Positions 1,369 to 44,521 are shown, counted from the stretch's first letter. The stretch is DNA of 44,521 nucleotides from a virus (IMGVR_UViG_2541047878_000001:1-44521), one strand, 5' to 3'. Translations and numbers: made by a program. Notes: generated from the letters alone by a model not told the origin.

Positions 1369-1444
1369 GCCGATATAGCTCAGTTGGTAGAGCAGCGCAT
1401 TCGTAATGCGAAGGTCGTAGGTTCGACTCCTATTATCGGCACCA
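1369..1444 (+). tRNA. thrW: tRNA-Thr (anticodon CGU)
   Basis: 76 nt with 7-bp acceptor stem GCCGATA/TATCGGC, anticodon loop TTCGTAA, T-arm GGTTCGACTCC and terminal CCA. Confidence 0.9.
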
Positions 1445-9576: not shown

Positions 9577-10518
9577 ATGAGCACTAAATTAACCGGCTAT
9601 GTATGGGATGGTTGCGCTGCATCAGGCATGAAGTTATCCAGCGTGGCAATTATGGCCCGCCTGGCTGATTTCAGTAATGACGAAGGTGTGTGCTGGCCAT
9701 CAATTGAAACCATTGCCCGTCAGATTGGCGCGGGGATGAGTACCGTCAGAACGGCTATCGCACGGCTGGAAGCAGAAGGCTGGTTAACGCGTAAGGCGCG
9801 TCGCCAGGGTAACCGCAATGCGTCGAATGTTTATCAGCTTAACGTTGCGAAGCTTCAGGCAGCGGCATTTTCTCAACTGTCAGATTCTGACCCGTCAAAA
9901 TCTGACGCATCAAAATCTGACCCGTCAAAATTTGATGCGTCGAAATCTGGCAAAAAAGCGGGTTTTCACCCGTCAGAATCTGGCGGGGATCCGTCAGTAA
10001 AATCAAAACATGATCCGTCAGATAAAAAAACTTCTCGTCCGGACGCTTCGCAACCGGACACGCAGACGGCTGAACAGGAGTTTTTAACTCGCCATCCTGA
10101 TGCGGTTGTATTCAGCCCTAAAAAGCGCCAGTGGGGAACGCAGGATGATTTGACCTGCGCACAGTGGCTCTGGAAAAAAATCATCGCCCTGTACGAGCAG
10201 GCCGCCGAATGTGACGGCGAGGTGGTTCGTCCCAAAGAACCGAACTGGACAGCCTGGGCAAACGAAATTCGCCTGATGTGTGTGCAGGATGGTCGTACTC
10301 ACAAACAAATCTGCGAGATGTACAGCCGCGTCAGCCGCGATCCGTTCTGGTGCCGTAACGTGCTCAGCCCGTCGAAGCTGCGGGAAAAATGGGATGAGCT
10401 TTCCCTGCGCTTATCGCCGTCCGTCAGCACGTACACCGAAAAACGCGAAGACCCGTACTTCAAAGCCAGTTACGACAACGTGGACTACAGCCAGATCCCG
10501 GCAGGATTCAGGGGGTGA
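9577..10518 (+). CDS. Replication initiator with N-terminal wHTH (lambda O-like role), iterons inside the gene
   Basis: N-terminal helix-turn-helix (SIETIARQIGAGMSTVRTAIARLEAEGW) and an internal SKSD/PSK repetitive linker encoded by tandem DNA repeats. Confidence 0.6.
   Translation: MSTKLTGYVWDGCAASGMKLSSVAIMARLADFSNDEGVCWPSIETIARQIGAGMSTVRTAIARLEAEGWLTRKARRQGNRNASNVYQLNVAKLQAAAFSQLSDSDPSKSDASKSDPSKFDASKSGKKAGFHPSESGGDPSVKSKHDPSDKKTSRPDASQPDTQTAEQEFLTRHPDAVVFSPKKRQWGTQDDLTCAQWLWKKIIALYEQAAECDGEVVRPKEPNWTAWANEIRLMCVQDGRTHKQICEMYSRVSRDPFWCRNVLSPSKLREKWDELSLRLSPSVSTYTEKREDPYFKASYDNVDYSQIPAGFRG
9880..10035. repeat. Iteron array (putative replication origin) embedded in the initiator gene
   Basis: Four tandem 15-bp units TCTGAC(C/G)C(G/A)TCAAAA at 9886-9945, further CCGTCAGAA-like copies to about 10020, then an A-rich tract (GATAAAAAAA). 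Confidence 0.55.
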
Positions 10519-16760: not shown

Positions 16761-17813
16761 ATGAAAAATACTGTAAAAATAAACAGTGTTGATTTAATCA
16801 ACGCTGATTGCCTGCATTTTATTCAGTCCCTGCCTGATGATTCCATTGACCTGATAGTTACCGATCCGCCGTACTTCAAAGTGAAGCCCAACGGTTGGGA
16901 CAATCAGTGGAAAGGGGACGAAGATTACCTTAAGTGGCTGGACCACTGTCTGGCTCAGTTCTGGCGGGTGCTGAAACCTGCCGGAAGCCTTTACCTGTTC
17001 TGTGGACATCGCCTGGCATCTGATATCGAGATCATGATGCGTGAACGTTTCAACGTGCTTAACCATATCATCTGGGCGAAGCCGTCCGGACGATGGAACG
17101 GGTGTAATAAAGAAAGCCTGCGGGCATATTTCCCCGCTACAGAGCGCGTTCTGTTTGCTGAACATTACCAGGGGCCATATCGCGGCAAAAGTGACGGCTA
17201 TGCGGAAAAAGAAAGGGAACTCAAACAGCACATAATGGCACCGCTGATATCGTATTTCAGGGATGCACGTGCCGAACTGGGTATAACGGCAAAACAGATT
17301 GCCGAAGCCACTGGTAAGAAAAACATGGTTTCCCACTGGTTTGGTGCCAGTCAGTGGCAGTTGCCGAATGAGGCTGACTACCGGAAGTTGCAGGCACTGT
17401 TTTCCCGTATAGCGGCAGAGAAGTTTCAGGAACAACAACTGGAACAGACACACCACCAGCTGGTGGCATCTTATGATTCACTGAATCGCAAATATTCTGA
17501 ATTGCTGGATGAGTTTAAATCTCTCCGGCGCTATTTCTCCGTATCAGTCTCCGTGCCTTATACCGATGTCTGGACGCATAAGCCCGTTCAGTTCTACCCG
17601 GGTAAACATCCGTGCGAGAAACCGGCGGATATGCTCCGGCAAATAATCAATGCCAGTAGTCGACCTGGTGATCTGGTTGCTGATTTCTTTATGGGATCCG
17701 GTTCCACAATAAAAGCAGCAATGGCGCTGGGGCGTCGGGCGTTAGGTGTTGAACTTGAGTCAGAGCGGTTTAATCAGACGGTGAAAGAGGTAAGTGAACT
17801 GGTGGGGAAATAA
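16761..17813 (+). CDS. Orphan DNA methyltransferase (N6-adenine/N4-cytosine family, DPPY motif)
   Basis: SIDLIVTDPPYF catalytic motif and C-terminal FFMGSGST SAM-binding motif; no adjacent restriction endonuclease ORF. Confidence 0.8.
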   Translation: MKNTVKINSVDLINADCLHFIQSLPDDSIDLIVTDPPYFKVKPNGWDNQWKGDEDYLKWLDHCLAQFWRVLKPAGSLYLFCGHRLASDIEIMMRERFNVLNHIIWAKPSGRWNGCNKESLRAYFPATERVLFAEHYQGPYRGKSDGYAEKERELKQHIMAPLISYFRDARAELGITAKQIAEATGKKNMVSHWFGASQWQLPNEADYRKLQALFSRIAAEKFQEQQLEQTHHQLVASYDSLNRKYSELLDEFKSLRRYFSVSVSVPYTDVWTHKPVQFYPGKHPCEKPADMLRQIINASSRPGDLVADFFMGSGSTIKAAMALGRRALGVELESERFNQTVKEVSELVGK

Positions 17814-38783: not shown

Positions 38784-39338
38784 ATGCTTATTGGCTATGT
38801 ACGCGTATCAACAAATGACCAGAACACCGATCTACAACGTAATGCGCTGAACTGTGCAGGATGTGAGCTGATTTTTGAAGACAAGATAAGCGGTACAAAG
38901 TCCGACAGACCAGGACTGAAAAAGCTGCTCAGGACATTATCGGCAGGTGACACGCTGGTGGTCTGGAAACTGGACCGACTGGGGCGCAGTATGCGGCATC
39001 TTGTCGTGCTGGTGGAGGAGTTGCGCGAACGAGGCATCAACTTTCGTAGTCTGACGGATTCAATTGATACCAGTACCCCAATGGGGCGCTTTTTCTTTCA
39101 TGTGATGGGTGCCCTGGCTGAAATGGAGCGTGAACTGATTGTTGAACGAACAAAAGCTGGACTGGAAGCTGCTCGCGCACAGGGACGAATTGGTGGACGT
39201 CGCCCCAAACTTACACCAGAACAATGGGAGCAGGCCGGACGATTAATTGCAGCAGGAATTCCTCGCCAGAAGGTAGCGATCATCTATGATGTTGGTGTAT
39301 CGACACTGTATAAGATGTTTCCGGTCGGAGATAAATGA
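38784..39338 (+). CDS. Serine DNA invertase (Gin/Pin/Hin/Cin family)
   Basis: N-terminal catalytic region MLIGYVRVSTNDQNTDLQ and C-terminal HTH; start at ATG after AGGGGG; adjacent to the invertible fibre segment. Confidence 0.85.
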   Translation: MLIGYVRVSTNDQNTDLQRNALNCAGCELIFEDKISGTKSDRPGLKKLLRTLSAGDTLVVWKLDRLGRSMRHLVVLVEELRERGINFRSLTDSIDTSTPMGRFFFHVMGALAEMERELIVERTKAGLEAARAQGRIGGRRPKLTPEQWEQAGRLIAAGIPRQKVAIIYDVGVSTLYKMFPVGDK

Positions 39339-39377
39339 AACCGCAGGCTCGTCGTATGCAAGATCGTGCTGCGGTTT
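39338..39377. repeat. Repeat family copy a (imperfect hairpin; also terminator-like)
   Basis: AAACCGCAGGCTCGTCGTATGCAAGATCGTGCTGCGGTTT; about 89 percent identical to the core of copy b by hand alignment. Confidence 0.5.
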
Positions 39378-39396: not shown

Positions 39397-40266
<870 letters not shown>

Positions 40267-40356: not shown

Positions 40357-40435
40357 AAAAACCGCAGGCACGTTGTATGCAAGAACGTGCTGTGGCTGGC
40401 TGGTGAACTTCCAATAGTGCGAATATTGAATGATG
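40357..40435. repeat. Repeat family copy b
   Basis: AAAACCGCAGGCACGTTGTATGCAAGAACGTGCTGTGGCTGG... shares its left core with copy a and about 65 bp (about 86 percent identity by hand) with copy c. Confidence 0.5.
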
Positions 40436-40592
40436 TCCAGCCGTTACCGTTTTTACGTGTTTATTAGTGAACAAACCACTCGTCAGCAGACTCCTAGGTA
40501 TGAACAAAAGTTTTAGCTGAAACTCTATCTGTGGTGCGCGTAACAGAAGTGTAATAAAAGGCCCTAGAAAAGGGCCTAAGATTAGCAAAGAT

Positions 40593-40761: not shown

Positions 40762-40862
40762 TTGACAAAACCTAAGGTAAGCGTATACTCACAACCGCCA
40801 AGTTTTTCGTATTTGCTTACGATAGGAGAAGCCAGCGACAGCGGTTCGCTGGCTTTTTCGTT
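40762..40862 (+). ncRNA. Candidate small RNA: near-consensus sigma-70 promoter followed about 45 nt later by an intrinsic terminator
   Basis: TTGACA, 17-bp spacer, TATACT at 40762-40789, then hairpin GCCAGCGA-CAGCGGT-TCGCTGGC plus TTTTT at about 40833-40860. Confidence 0.3.
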
Positions 40863-41394
40863 ATCTTTTTGCATTTTTTCTCATCCAAGTTTCAGCCGCT
40901 TGTTGACTGACACCAAATGTTTTGCTTATATCTTCAACAGTCATTGTGGGCAAAACTAGTCTTGAGTCAATTAAGAAGTGGCTTGCAAAAACATCTGCTT
41001 GCCATTCGCTGTCTTCATAGATTTTATGCCCTCCACTAGTCTTATTACGTGCATAGATACTTTGATTGCGATGCATGACTAAATGACCAAGTTCATGCGC
41101 AACAGTGAATCTCGCATGGTTCTCACCATTGCACACTGCATCGTAAACAGATCGCTGTAAAACAATTTTGTTCTTATCTGGATAAGTCACTGCATAGCGT
41201 TTGGGCAGTTCATGATCTTCAACAATTTCTAGCTCAATGCTTTCTGAGGCCATAAGACCTTCTAGTAATACATCCAGTCTCAGATATGTGTGATTTGATA
41301 TCTGAAGAACGTCTCTCAGACGATGAGCGTATGATTTAATCATGCTGGTGCTGAGAGGTGAAACGCGATGGCCAAGTTCTCGTTTCGCAATCAT
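40861..41394 (-). CDS. ImmA/IrrE-family zinc metallopeptidase
   Basis: HEXXH motif (FTVAHELGHLVMH) in a 177-aa protein immediately downstream of, and coupled to, an XRE-family HTH gene. Confidence 0.7.
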   Translation of the reverse strand: MIAKRELGHRVSPLSTSMIKSYAHRLRDVLQISNHTYLRLDVLLEGLMASESIELEIVEDHELPKRYAVTYPDKNKIVLQRSVYDAVCNGENHARFTVAHELGHLVMHRNQSIYARNKTSGGHKIYEDSEWQADVFASHFLIDSRLVLPTMTVEDISKTFGVSQQAAETWMRKNAKR

Positions 41395-41397
41395 TAT

Positions 41398-41775
41398 TCA
41401 GTCCTTTAACATTTTATTAAGCTTATCGAGTTGCTCTGGACTCAGGTCCTTAAATTTACGAGCAAAAACAAGCATTAGTTCTTTGTTCTGCTCATTTGCA
41501 TCCGACATATCAACCTTAATGGACGGTTGAGAAATCTCTGCCTGTTTCTTGAGATTGATGATGTCTTGTCCGCTAAGCTCAAAAGTTGTTGCAATCGTAT
41601 TTACTAATGAGTCCGGTATAGCTCTTTTGCCTAATTCAATGGCGGATAAGTAAGCCGAACTAACGCCTAACAGATCAGCCATATTTTTGAGCACCATACC
41701 CCGGTCTATTCTCATTTTTCTGAGAGTCTTACCAAAGCTAGTTACCATGTTGCGCCTCCTACAATCCATGCTCAC
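41398..41775 (-). CDS. XRE-family HTH transcriptional regulator (ImmR-like)
   Basis: HTH (LRKMRIDRGMVLKNMADLLGVSSAYLSAIELGKR) at the N-terminus; upstream partner of the ImmA-like gene. Confidence 0.7.
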   Translation of the reverse strand: MSMDCRRRNMVTSFGKTLRKMRIDRGMVLKNMADLLGVSSAYLSAIELGKRAIPDSLVNTIATTFELSGQDIINLKKQAEISQPSIKVDMSDANEQNKELMLVFARKFKDLSPEQLDKLNKMLKD

Positions 41776-42081: not shown

Positions 42082-42843
42082 GTGCAAAAGAATTTGTTAC
42101 AATTATGCTACGAAGGAGAGTGTGGAGAAAATTATATCCGTAGCATGAATGAAAAAGGGCAGATTTTTGTTTCACTTTCAGATGTGCTAAGAACGCTTTC
42201 TGCTGAGAACAGAAAACTGGATGGAAAGACTTCTCAAAGCTTGCTCACTGTAATAAGAGCGGTAATAAAAACTTTAGATCCAGATGAGTTTAGGAATGTT
42301 TCTCTTGTCGTGGATGGTGAAACTATCTCTGAGGTATTTCTTACTGAACCAGGTCTATATAGAGTACTTGCTCAGGATACTACTGCTGCGGGGAAAAAAT
42401 TCCAACGCTGGCTTTTTCATCAGGTCCTTCCGTCTATTCGTGAATTTGGTGTATATCCTCCGCCACCTAAGCAAGAACGTTCAGAACTGAGTGCTTTTGC
42501 TAACAGTCTGCAGCAGACGGTTCAAGCATTGGTAATGGAAATAGAAAAACGTGAAGAGTTAGAAAGTAGAGTAAACCAAGTTGAACTAAAAGTTAACTCG
42601 TTAGAAAGTTTAAGAGATTTGTCTCAGTTCAGAAGTGTTCCTCAACGATTGATGGAGTTAGGTTTGGATACCTATTCGGTTGAGGAGCTTTGGCAATGGT
42701 GTGAAAAATTGCGTAGTGAACGTGGAGCAGAAAGAATTAAGTGCCCCTCCGGATTGAATATAAATTCTTGCTATCCATTAGCTTTGGTTGATGAAGCTAT
42801 CGCTATATACCAGAAAGTAGTTGAGGCAAGAACACGTCAGTGA
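42082..42843 (+). CDS. Bro-N domain protein (antirepressor-like)
   Basis: Bro-N-like region (FLTEPGLYRVLAQDTTAAGKKFQRWLFHQVLPSIREFGVY) and coiled-coil C-terminus; divergent from the XRE/ImmA pair; GTG start after AGGAGG. Confidence 0.6.
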   Translation: MQKNLLQLCYEGECGENYIRSMNEKGQIFVSLSDVLRTLSAENRKLDGKTSQSLLTVIRAVIKTLDPDEFRNVSLVVDGETISEVFLTEPGLYRVLAQDTTAAGKKFQRWLFHQVLPSIREFGVYPPPPKQERSELSAFANSLQQTVQALVMEIEKREELESRVNQVELKVNSLESLRDLSQFRSVPQRLMELGLDTYSVEELWQWCEKLRSERGAERIKCPSGLNINSCYPLALVDEAIAIYQKVVEARTRQ

Positions 42844-42857
42844 GCTTGAGGGAAAAA

Positions 42858-42885
42858 AAAGCCCGCATAAGCGGGCTTTTTTATC
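42858..42885 (+). terminator. Rho-independent terminator
   Basis: A8-GCCCGC-ATAA-GCGGGC-T6 hairpin immediately after the Bro-N gene. Confidence 0.6.
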
Positions 42886-43007
42886 ACTCGGGAGCTGCGG
42901 CTCCTTTGCGTATCCTTTTTTGTCTCCTCACCGTCTGGTCGGTGTCCTGCTGAGACTGCTAACATCCTGTTTTTGTTGGTGTTGTCCTTACACCGTCCAA
43001 TCATGAT

Positions 43008-43040
43008 TGGTGGAGCTGGCGGGAGTTGAACCCGCTGACA
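43008..43040 (-). other. tmRNA (ssrA)-like 3'-terminal fragment (T-arm plus acceptor plus CCA), candidate att-site remnant
   Basis: Minus strand reads GTCAGCGGGTTCAACTCCCGCCAGCTCCACCA, matching the 3' end of enterobacterial tmRNA as I recall it; no tmRNA body or tRNA 5' half is present. Confidence 0.35.
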
Positions 43041-43105
43041 CGTCGTATGCAAGAACTTGCTGCGGCTGGATGGTGGACTTTCGATAGTGCGAGTATTGAA
43101 TGATT
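43031..43105. repeat. Repeat family copy c
   Basis: CGCTGACACGTCGTATGCAAGAACTTGCTGCGGCTGGATGGTGGACTTTCGATAGTGCGAGTATTGAATGATT, about 86 percent identical to copy b over 65 bp (hand alignment). Confidence 0.5.
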
Positions 43106-43474
43106 TCCATCTATTATAGATTTTACCGTATTTCGGCATGAATGAAACTGAATATCCTCCCACCGACCCTCCATGACTTTACACCACTGTCTCTGGGGCT
43201 GCTATGTGCCAAAAGCGGACATAACGACACGTTAGTTAGAAATCTCAAGACCAATTAGGTTGGATACTTACATGTATACTATTGCCTAACGATACTACCC
43301 TATCAACCTCATGGTTTATAGGCGGGGGTGAGAGCCAATCGAACGCTATCGTACGTTTTTATGCTGTCTACCCTAGACCCCAAGTAGACATGAATCTTAC
43401 CTGATTTCCATACGAGGGCGACGTTGATCATCCAGCTTTAGTGCGAGCACTGAACTTAACATTTACCAGCAATA

Positions 43475-44521
43475 GTGATATTTTCTACAAAGAAAAATAT
43501 ATGGAATAACGTCATCGCGGGTACAAAAATGACTATAAAAAAAACATATGTAACACCAACAGAAATAGTGAAATATTTTTATGACAAACCGGAAAACGAT
43601 AACGTAAAAGAGAGAAAAACAATTGAGAGCCTGACCCGTCTCAAACCTGAGTGGGAAAATACTCTCGATATGATGAAGTTAATACGCAATTGTGAAAAGC
43701 TAGCAACTGAAGGTATTTTAATGGAATTGTCTTCAGGACATACTCTTTTTGACCGTTGCTATTTCGCACCGAATTTCAATGAATCAGATGCGAAATATGG
43801 AAAGTATGATTTTATAGCTGATGGATTTGAGTCAATCATAGACCGCCTTAGTCCTTCCGTTTTACCTGTTGTTGTTGAAAAAAGTGATGGTTCACATGAT
43901 CTTGGTACTAGTTTTATTGTTGGGAATAACCACACGATATTTACAGCCAGACATGTTATTGAAGACATGAAGAGTATCAGGATACTTAGAGCTGGTGGTG
44001 AGGCTTTACCAATACATAAAATCTTTGTATCTAACGATGAACGTATTGATATCGCTTTAGTTTTCACAACCATTCCGAATGAAGATAATATTCAACCACT
44101 TAAGGTCTCAACCAAAGCCTCGGTACTGGATGAAATTTTATCAATAGGATTTCCACCCATTCCAGGATTTGATGCATTAAAGTTATATGACGTTTCGCAT
44201 ATAAATTCGTTTGTCCGACTGTCAAAGGGGCGAATTGTTGGTTCTGGTCACTCTTACTTAGATTCACAAGACTTTTTATTATTCAATGCTAGGGTTAAGG
44301 GGGGGAATAGCGGTGGCCCTATAATTAACAAATACGGCCTTGTTGTTGGTATGCTTGTACAAATACCAATATCATCTGAGGACAGTTCAAAGATTGATAA
44401 CCTTGGATATGGTATAGCTGTAACAGGAAAAAGCCTGCTGGATGCCATTACATTTACAGAAAATGGCCGCGAATTAACACTCACCGACCGAGGAAATGGA
44501 GAATATTCAACTCTAGCATAA
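43475..44521 (+). CDS. Trypsin-like serine protease with uncharacterised N-terminal domain (348 aa)
   Basis: Catalytic triad context FTARHV, IDIAL and GGNSGGPII in the C-terminal half; N-terminal roughly 140 aa unassigned; AT-rich; true start may be an internal ATG. Confidence 0.55.
   Translation: MIFSTKKNIWNNVIAGTKMTIKKTYVTPTEIVKYFYDKPENDNVKERKTIESLTRLKPEWENTLDMMKLIRNCEKLATEGILMELSSGHTLFDRCYFAPNFNESDAKYGKYDFIADGFESIIDRLSPSVLPVVVEKSDGSHDLGTSFIVGNNHTIFTARHVIEDMKSIRILRAGGEALPIHKIFVSNDERIDIALVFTTIPNEDNIQPLKVSTKASVLDEILSIGFPPIPGFDALKLYDVSHINSFVRLSKGRIVGSGHSYLDSQDFLLFNARVKGGNSGGPIINKYGLVVGMLVQIPISSEDSSKIDNLGYGIAVTGKSLLDAITFTENGRELTLTDRGNGEYSTLA

Follow-up and report, generated by a model that had tools for sequence, protein, structure and literature searches.

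A candidate phage-exclusion serine protease carried as a single-gene cassette in a thrW prophage of Escherichia coli

The window, which is the whole stretch of 44,521 nucleotides that was analysed (IMGVR_UViG_2541047878_000001), is E. coli chromosome at thrW. The tRNA gene is followed by a phiP27/SfV-like myovirus prophage with an integrase, a P27-type terminase, tail sheath, baseplate and tail fibre genes and the pinE invertase gene. After pinE, an accessory arm begins in which PD-T4-3, an ImmA/M78-HTH pair, a BRO-N gene, an attP-arm remnant, a repeat (copy c) and a serine protease gene follow each other in this order. The features of the arm and the tRNA gene are the following, with positions counted from the first nucleotide of the window:

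1369 to 1444, plus strand: tRNA-Thr(CGU) gene thrW, attL of the protease-bearing element (ARAGORN, Rfam)
39397 to 40170, minus strand: PD-T4-3 (GIY-YIG, LEM-3-like), full-length (PADLOC 1-255/256, E=7e-140; Pfam LEM-3_GIY-YIG)
40861 to 41748, minus strand: ImmA/IrrE (M78) peptidase and HTH pair (40861-41394, 41398-41748), CapP/CapH-like (PADLOC, Pfam)
42082 to 42843, plus strand: BRO-N gene (Pfam Bro-N), divergent from the ImmA-HTH pair
42855 to 43036: attP-arm remnant of the phage LLS type (match to 43035, 92.8% identity; LLS record 'tmRNA pseudogene / attP')
43009 to 43036, minus strand: 3'-end fragment of ssrA (tmRNA), 28 nt identical (sequence reading; Rfam tmRNA positions 347-363, sub-threshold)
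43027 to 43126, plus strand: repeat copy c, the third copy of an element of about 100 nt (repeat search)

The protease gene ends with the window, and the DNA past this point was taken from genomes that are 100% identical to the window over 42800-44521. A 43-nt copy of the 3' half of thrW was found 650 bp beyond the protease stop (17373-17415 in the window-type locus L001), and the att copies were supported by an exact 25-nt repeat (L001 17391-17415, L009 10328-10352). Since this attR copy sits past the stop codon, the protease lies inside the element and not beyond it. Among the cargo genes of the thrW-integrated prophage it is the last one; the first-pass annotation had described it as just outside repeat copy c and beyond the tmRNA-like fragment. 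It had also been suggested that partner genes may lie past the window end. The inspected DNA contains no ORF of more than 56 aa in the 650 bp between the protease stop and attR. Directly past attR follow a P4-type integrase remnant, a MarR-family regulator and the vatX/vat vacuolating autotransporter island. The thrW site as a whole is a tandem array of elements (prophage, attR, P4-type integrase remnant, vat island).

The arm upstream of the protease contains a known defence gene. PD-T4-3, a published single-gene anti-phage system, is located directly after pinE and about 3.4 kb upstream of the protease. The ImmA-HTH pair was matched by the PADLOC profiles capP (5e-15) and capH (1.2e-10) and by Pfam Peptidase_M78 and HTH_19. 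CapP and CapH are DNA-damage-responsive regulators of defence operons, and the ImmA and HTH proteins are similar to them. The pair is divergent from BRO-N, so BRO-N may be regulated cargo. A terminator-like hairpin with A and T runs on its flanks was observed 3' of BRO-N, and the attP-arm remnant begins thereafter. The tmRNA-like fragment that had been reported here is present, reduced to the last 28 nt of ssrA. The LLS-like ssrA attP remnant is evidence of a mosaic assembly of the prophage, because it is embedded in an element that is integrated at thrW and not at ssrA.

Repeat copy c, which had likewise been reported, is real; the cassette with the protease gene begins shortly to the right of it. 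The usual place of the 100-nt element is after pin-type invertase genes, and the 3' flank of the invertase gene of phage phi458 matched 43029-43211. The three copies in the window (39336-39374, 40357-40456 and 43027-43126) are 82-85% identical, and copy a begins at the pinE stop. Between and beside them lie PD-T4-3, the ImmA-HTH-BRO module and the protease cassette. Since the copies bracket the cargo modules in this way, they suggest that the element functions as a linker for module shuffling. Sequence similar to the element was also found in HK97-like and Stx phages.

The protease gene and its surroundings were resolved into the following features:

43201 to 44521, plus strand: in-window part of a mobile cassette of 1726 bp (blastn, boundary alignments, GC)
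43456 to 43484, plus strand: promoter-like site TTAACA-17-TATTTT with TG extension (L001 15657-15685), a match to consensus only
43529 to 44521, plus strand: coding sequence of an S1/HtrA-like serine protease of 330 aa, WP_000152898.1 (ORF list, Pfam, homologs, dN/dS)
43529 to 43864, plus strand: family-specific N-terminal domain, aa 1-112 (alignments, AF2 model, no Pfam/PDB family)
43865 to 44518, plus strand: HtrA-like protease domain, aa 113-330, with the catalytic residues His142, Asp174 and Ser261

The ORF 43475-44521 described in the first-pass annotation is present on the plus strand, and the last codon of the window is its TAA stop (ORF list, sequence reading). The likely start is ATG 43529, which gives a protein of 330 aa, as compared with 348 aa from GTG 43475 (RefSeq and homolog alignment). 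The GTG is an over-extended start; in an alignment of 51 sequences the homologs begin at the position equivalent to ATG 43529. RefSeq labels the protein as 'S1 family peptidase'. The GC content of the gene is 37% versus 50% for the window. The region upstream had been called AT-rich and without ORFs. The stretch 42844-43528 is indeed gene-free, but with a GC content of 41-49% it is above the gene itself. The promoter-like site is located about 45 bp before the ATG, within the stretch that is kept in an 84%-identical copy on a Klebsiella plasmid. The dN/dS of the whole gene was 0.12-0.15. Purifying selection acts on both parts of the protein, as the ratio is 0.16-0.21 in the N-domain and 0.09-0.12 in the protease domain. 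This is a genuine gene with an intact reading frame.

The protease domain was readily assigned. Pfam Trypsin_2 matched aa 126-275 (E=1.5e-17) and Trypsin matched more weakly. The triad contexts ARHV, IDIAL and GGNSGGP, already recognised in the first reading, were all found and correspond to His142 (codon 43952-43954), Asp174 (44048-44050) and Ser261 (44309-44311). In the numbering of the 330-aa protein, the three residues are invariant in all 51 full-length homologs. An AlphaFold2 model was built from the 51-sequence alignment (pLDDT 87, pTM 0.86) and was used in place of the single-sequence model, which had a pLDDT of 34. The double beta-barrel chymotrypsin fold and the triad order His-Asp-Ser place the protein in clan PA, family S1 (Trypsin_2/S1C-like). 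The model is of low confidence in a loop of aa 212-227, which lies between Asp174 and Ser261 and is preceded by the family-specific motif GYPPIPGFD. From its position, and by analogy with DegS, we take this loop to be the counterpart of the LD/L3 loops that regulate HtrA proteases.

The nearest sequence and structure matches were DegS, DegP, DegQ and Deg1. Together with the vat autotransporter island just downstream, they raise the question of whether the protein is a housekeeping quality-control protease of the HtrA/DegP type or a virulence factor of the vat island. A signal peptide and PDZ domains, the marks of a DegP-like protein, had been named in the first reading as evidence that would refute a defence effector, and neither feature was present. 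No Pfam match to a PDZ domain was obtained and the chain stops about 30 aa past the protease domain. No signal peptide or TM segment was found; the highest 19-aa Kyte-Doolittle window was 1.26, and the N-terminus is charged and not hydrophobic. With the NCBIfam/TIGRFAM trusted cut-offs, the TIGR02037 score was 46 versus 416 and the DegS score 34 versus 408, about a tenth of what is required for these families. In E. coli, moreover, the gene occurs in just 0.76% of the complete genomes, it and the vat island are on opposite sides of an att copy, and its copies in P2 prophages are far from vat. A periplasmic protease of the DegP type was ruled out by the absence of PDZ, signal peptide and TM segment and by the HtrA-family scores; the housekeeping and virulence readings, which we consider very improbable, were rejected for the lack of export and PDZ features, the rarity of the gene and its separation by att. 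The protein is thus predicted to be cytoplasmic, with an HtrA-like fold and an intact His-Asp-Ser triad. It differs from DegP, DegQ and DegS in its location, in the missing PDZ domain, signal and anchor, in its N-domain, in its rarity and in its mobility.

The N-terminal domain had been described as novel and of about 140 aa. Its novelty stood, and its size was reduced to about 110 aa because the start moves to ATG 43529. When its profile was compared with Pfam and with the PDB sequences, no family was found and the matches were insignificant (AsnC 'YGEYD' with E=0.04, DEP and Rio2_N). The structure prediction that had been proposed for the domain was obtained with the AF2 model described above and showed helices and a single beta hairpin (H48-60, E65-68, E77-79). 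In the alignments the residues F17, Y90, G91, Y93, G99 and F100 are conserved. From the order of the secondary structure elements and the weak matches to DEP and Rio2_N, the domain is possibly winged-helix-like. A search of the N-domain profile against 1.84 billion representative proteins returned 154 clusters. Almost all have 310-370 aa and the same architecture or are fragments, and essentially none of the 154 has the domain fused to another effector. Because almost all clusters have one architecture, the N-domain appears to be private to this protease family. It is thus no promiscuous module of the sensor type that other systems use as well.

We then compared the surroundings of the gene in other genomes. 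Among 5426 complete E. coli genomes, 41 (0.76%) carry the protease, in single copy, on the chromosome and at least 99.4% identical. The cassette consists of 328 bp upstream of the gene, the gene and about 405 bp downstream, and this last part of about 405 bp lies outside the window. Between the window type and P2-like prophages its identity was 99.4-99.5% (blastn, L001 versus L068-L070 and L060), and its right boundary is identical in all three contexts in which it occurs in E. coli. In the first context, that of the window, it is present in 11 genomes. In the second, found in 16 genomes with another arrangement at thrW, it is located after the DUF2971 (PDC-S31-like) and DUF4236 genes and before a P4-like satellite that carries DRT8. 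This satellite beside the protease in another E. coli lineage (L008 16216-22222) has an integrase disrupted by IS3, psu and ogr/delta, and its hotspot holds DRT8 (RT and PDDEXK). In the third context, in about 14 genomes, the cassette is inserted in P2-like prophages between G, the gene for tail-fibre assembly, and FI, the gene for the tail sheath, and the protease is encoded on the strand of these two genes. This position was checked in three genomes and in one IMG/VR contig, and the other eleven of the 14 were assigned from the coverage pattern.

On either side of the cassette there are gaps of 390-600 bp. A search for terminal inverted repeats on the cassette gave nothing convincing. In the copy on the Klebsiella IncF plasmid (84% nucleotide identity), homology extends over just 108 bp upstream, from window position 43421, and 50 bp downstream. 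Small ORFs of 40-56 aa in the flanks showed no conservation. They are not conserved partners, because in the distant copies no more than about 110 bp before the gene and 50 bp after it are retained. In the 5' flank no Rfam family of structured RNA was found, and the z-score of its fold was -1.8. Taken together, the comparisons indicate that the protease gene travels alone, as a mobile single-gene cassette, between accessory 'moron' slots on prophages, satellites and plasmids. The claim of a stand-alone trypsin-like protease was borne out by both the Trypsin_2 match and the one-gene cassette.

The composition of the cassette bears on the possibility that the protease is the toxin of an addiction module, with its antidote in a small protein or RNA of the cassette that escaped annotation, and mainly stabilises the mobile element. 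There is room for such an antidote in the 328 bp upstream and the roughly 405 bp downstream of non-coding-looking DNA, and toxins that are serine proteases are known, for example IetS (PMC13069673). The 40-56 aa ORFs of these flanks are not conserved, however, and the short homology in the Klebsiella copy, the missing Rfam match, the z-score of only -1.8 and the lack of a conserved neighbour all argue against it. We regard an addiction toxin as quite improbable.

The P2-like copies suggested another role. They lie between two tail genes on the same strand, and in the window the gene comes after the tail-fibre/invertase region and the ImmA-HTH-BRO module. The protease might mature a tail-fibre or other virion protein, or it might cleave a repressor or antirepressor and so control induction. 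On the other hand, the P2 slot is non-essential, and fun(Z), which P2 itself has there, is unrelated to the protease, with no detectable homology. A role in the life cycle of the prophage is also at odds with the presence in only 41 of the 5426 E. coli genomes, the foreign GC content and the flanking gaps of 390-600 bp. In addition, plasmid and chromosomal copies have no virion genes among their nearest neighbours. Such a role is given a rather small probability.

The slots themselves are of the kind in which defence genes are found. The occupant of the G/FI slot in P2 itself is fun(Z), with the annotation 'cloned gene blocks growth of T5; nonessential; lysogenic conversion'. With fun(Z) the protease has in common the G/FI slot, occupied in about 14 E. 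coli genomes, and the character of a non-essential lysogenic-conversion cargo. The two differ in that Fun(Z) has 528 aa, is encoded on the opposite strand and shows no sequence similarity to the protease (BLASTP E=7.9). Vassallo et al. 2022 described the P2 slot as a second defence-enriched locus of P2-like phages and obtained three new systems from it (PMC9519451). In a P4-like element of Pseudomonas (DUF927 primase, Toprim), a 54%-identical homolog is located between HEPN_AbiU2 and DUF4238 genes, the latter being a validated single-gene defence system (PMC9122126). Other homologs adjoin GAPS4 in a P2-like prophage, a gene for a PDC-S15/FRG protein, a reverse transcriptase and a large SNF2 helicase, a group of TPR-CHAT, Ser/Thr kinase and SMC ATPase genes, or a type I restriction-modification system. 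With the P2 fun(Z) slot, the P4-like hotspot and the PD-T4-3 arm, the protease gene resides in hotspots of anti-phage genes.

A wider scan covered the three nearest neighbours per locus, 128 proteins from 43 loci, taken as a raw listing. Strong matches included pAgo, QatA, retron RTs, type II R-M, AbiEii, PDC-S01, PDC-S03, PDC-S15 and PDC-S73, and further HipA, Mrr, nSTAND3 and a KAP NTPase, with housekeeping genes alongside. One homolog of Nitrospina stands alone among housekeeping genes. Conserved partners were searched by all-versus-all clustering of the neighbours within 5 kb in about 50 loci from several phyla. No family occurred in more than three loci when near-duplicates were set aside, and MBL was absent from the best 25 of the 99 neighbour families. 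An LmuB SMC-ATPase or a HamB helicase was not conserved as an adjacent partner in the approximately 50 loci, and the cassette itself consists of one gene. The same loci gave no candidate for a co-evolving adjacent effector as in the trypsin-MBL, Pepco, EACC1 and nuclease pairs, as no neighbour was common to more than three of them. Because no conserved partner exists in about 50 loci, the function must reside in the single polypeptide. The genomic context points strongly to phage defence as the putative function.

The family is rare and patchy. A search of 5.8 billion proteins returned 78 homolog clusters of about 330 aa each, including Pseudomonas and Nitrospina. Among 185,579 species representatives, 44 loci (at most 44 species) were found, mostly in Bacteroidota, with others in Cyanobacteria, Opitutia, Nitrospinaceae and Alphaproteobacteria. 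The family also occurs on plasmids (Klebsiella IncF) and on 12 IMG/VR viral contigs, and no full-length copy was found by tblastn in the isolated phages of INPHARED. In PHROGs it corresponds to phrog_18002, whose function is not annotated.

Accessory slots of phages contain anti-defence as well as defence genes. A protease of the cytoplasm that is carried by prophages, satellites and plasmids, and that sits in slots of this kind, might degrade a protein of the host immune system or of a rival element to the benefit of its own mobile element. Against such counter-defence or competition between elements, many homologs of Bacteroidota and Cyanobacteria are chromosomal and lie beside R-M, pAgo, retron or Qat genes, and their nearest neighbours include no phage genes. 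Moreover, the P2 G/FI and the P4-like slots have so far yielded defence systems. We consider counter-defence unlikely.

The matches to known defence proteases were limited to one half of the protein. PADLOC 2.0 gave six matches, all within aa 101-282 and none over the N-domain, and no full-length model was matched. The protease domain was recognised by RT-Protease_XI, LmuA, HamA, PDC-M35A and PDC-S45. The best of these, the retron type XI RT-protease (E=5e-13), likewise consists of one gene and uses a trypsin-like effector, but only the profile positions 340-486 of 506 align. No reverse transcriptase domain was found in the protease, its N-domain has no similarity to RTs, and no msr/msd-like RNA was detected upstream with Rfam. 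Lamassu (LmuA-protease), Hachiman (trypsin-HamA), Avs2 and Avs4 and the pairs of trypsin with MBL, Pepco or a nuclease share the Trypsin_2-type domain as an immune effector or activator. There, an SMC, helicase or STAND ATPase serves as the sensor, either on one polypeptide with the protease or encoded next to it, and usually the protease cleaves a pro-effector; neither is present here. To our knowledge, every characterised trypsin-like defence protease works with a sensor or an effector or pro-effector as a partner.

A closer parallel in gene organisation is Lit of the e14 prophage. Lit cleaves EF-Tu when it is triggered by the Gol peptide of T4, which leads to phage exclusion. It is, like the protease described here, a single cytoplasmic protease encoded by a prophage without a partner gene and carried as cryptic-prophage cargo, and it served us as the model. 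The folds are unrelated, as Lit is a zinc metalloprotease and the present protein is S1/HtrA-like. From the context and the anatomy of the gene, we infer that a single-gene phage-exclusion protease of the abortive-infection type, expressed from the lysogen, is modestly probable. In the uninfected cell, the N-domain, probably with the disordered loop of aa 212-227, would hold the protease latent. A cue of the infecting phage would lift this latency, and the activated protease would then cleave an essential protein of the host or the phage and stop the infection, as Lit does with EF-Tu. The form in which sensor and effector are one polypeptide is more tentative. Here the winged-helix-like N-domain might recognise a phage protein or nucleic acid, unlock the protease and so abort the infection, which we regard as rather less likely than not. 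Against the defence reading stand the confinement of the PADLOC matches to the protease domain, the housekeeping contexts of the Nitrospina type, the absence of a partner and the lack of the gene in the isolated phages of INPHARED. The best reading of the protease is that of a putative partner-less form of the hotspot-borne protease immunity with a private N-domain.

Prior descriptions were searched in the literature. Neither the RefSeq accessions nor the architecture of N-domain and protease were found in any of the papers searched. The protein is not described in DefensePredictor, Rousset 2022, Vassallo 2022, the papers on domain-centric screens or the preprints on protease modules. The published domain-centric screens explicitly left out single-gene candidates.

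If the form with sensor and effector in one polypeptide is true, Lit would have a counterpart among the serine proteases, and this would be the first defence system with a trypsin fold that needs no partner sensor or pro-effector. As a one-gene system, it would offer the simplest model for the latency of a protease and its switching-on by a phage. The cassette is 1.7 kb long and thus small enough for direct cloning and testing, and its residence in the fun(Z) slot of P2 provides a natural isogenic comparison. The family is a small one of about 150 clusters that are spread widely over the phylogeny, so the trigger and the target could be identified with escape mutants and substrate trapping. 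A negative outcome would also be instructive, as a warning that residence in a hotspot is by itself no proof of defence.

Other parts of the prophage showed features of their own. In the early region, six tandem iteron-like repeats of 15 nt (TCAAAATCTGACCCG-like) were found at 9865-9987, and this array is probably a replication origin or a regulator-binding array. The equivalent prophage of E. coli A32 carries a DNA methyltransferase gene before its lysis cassette and iss (increased serum survival, a Bor-like lipoprotein) after it (L010 18415-18708).
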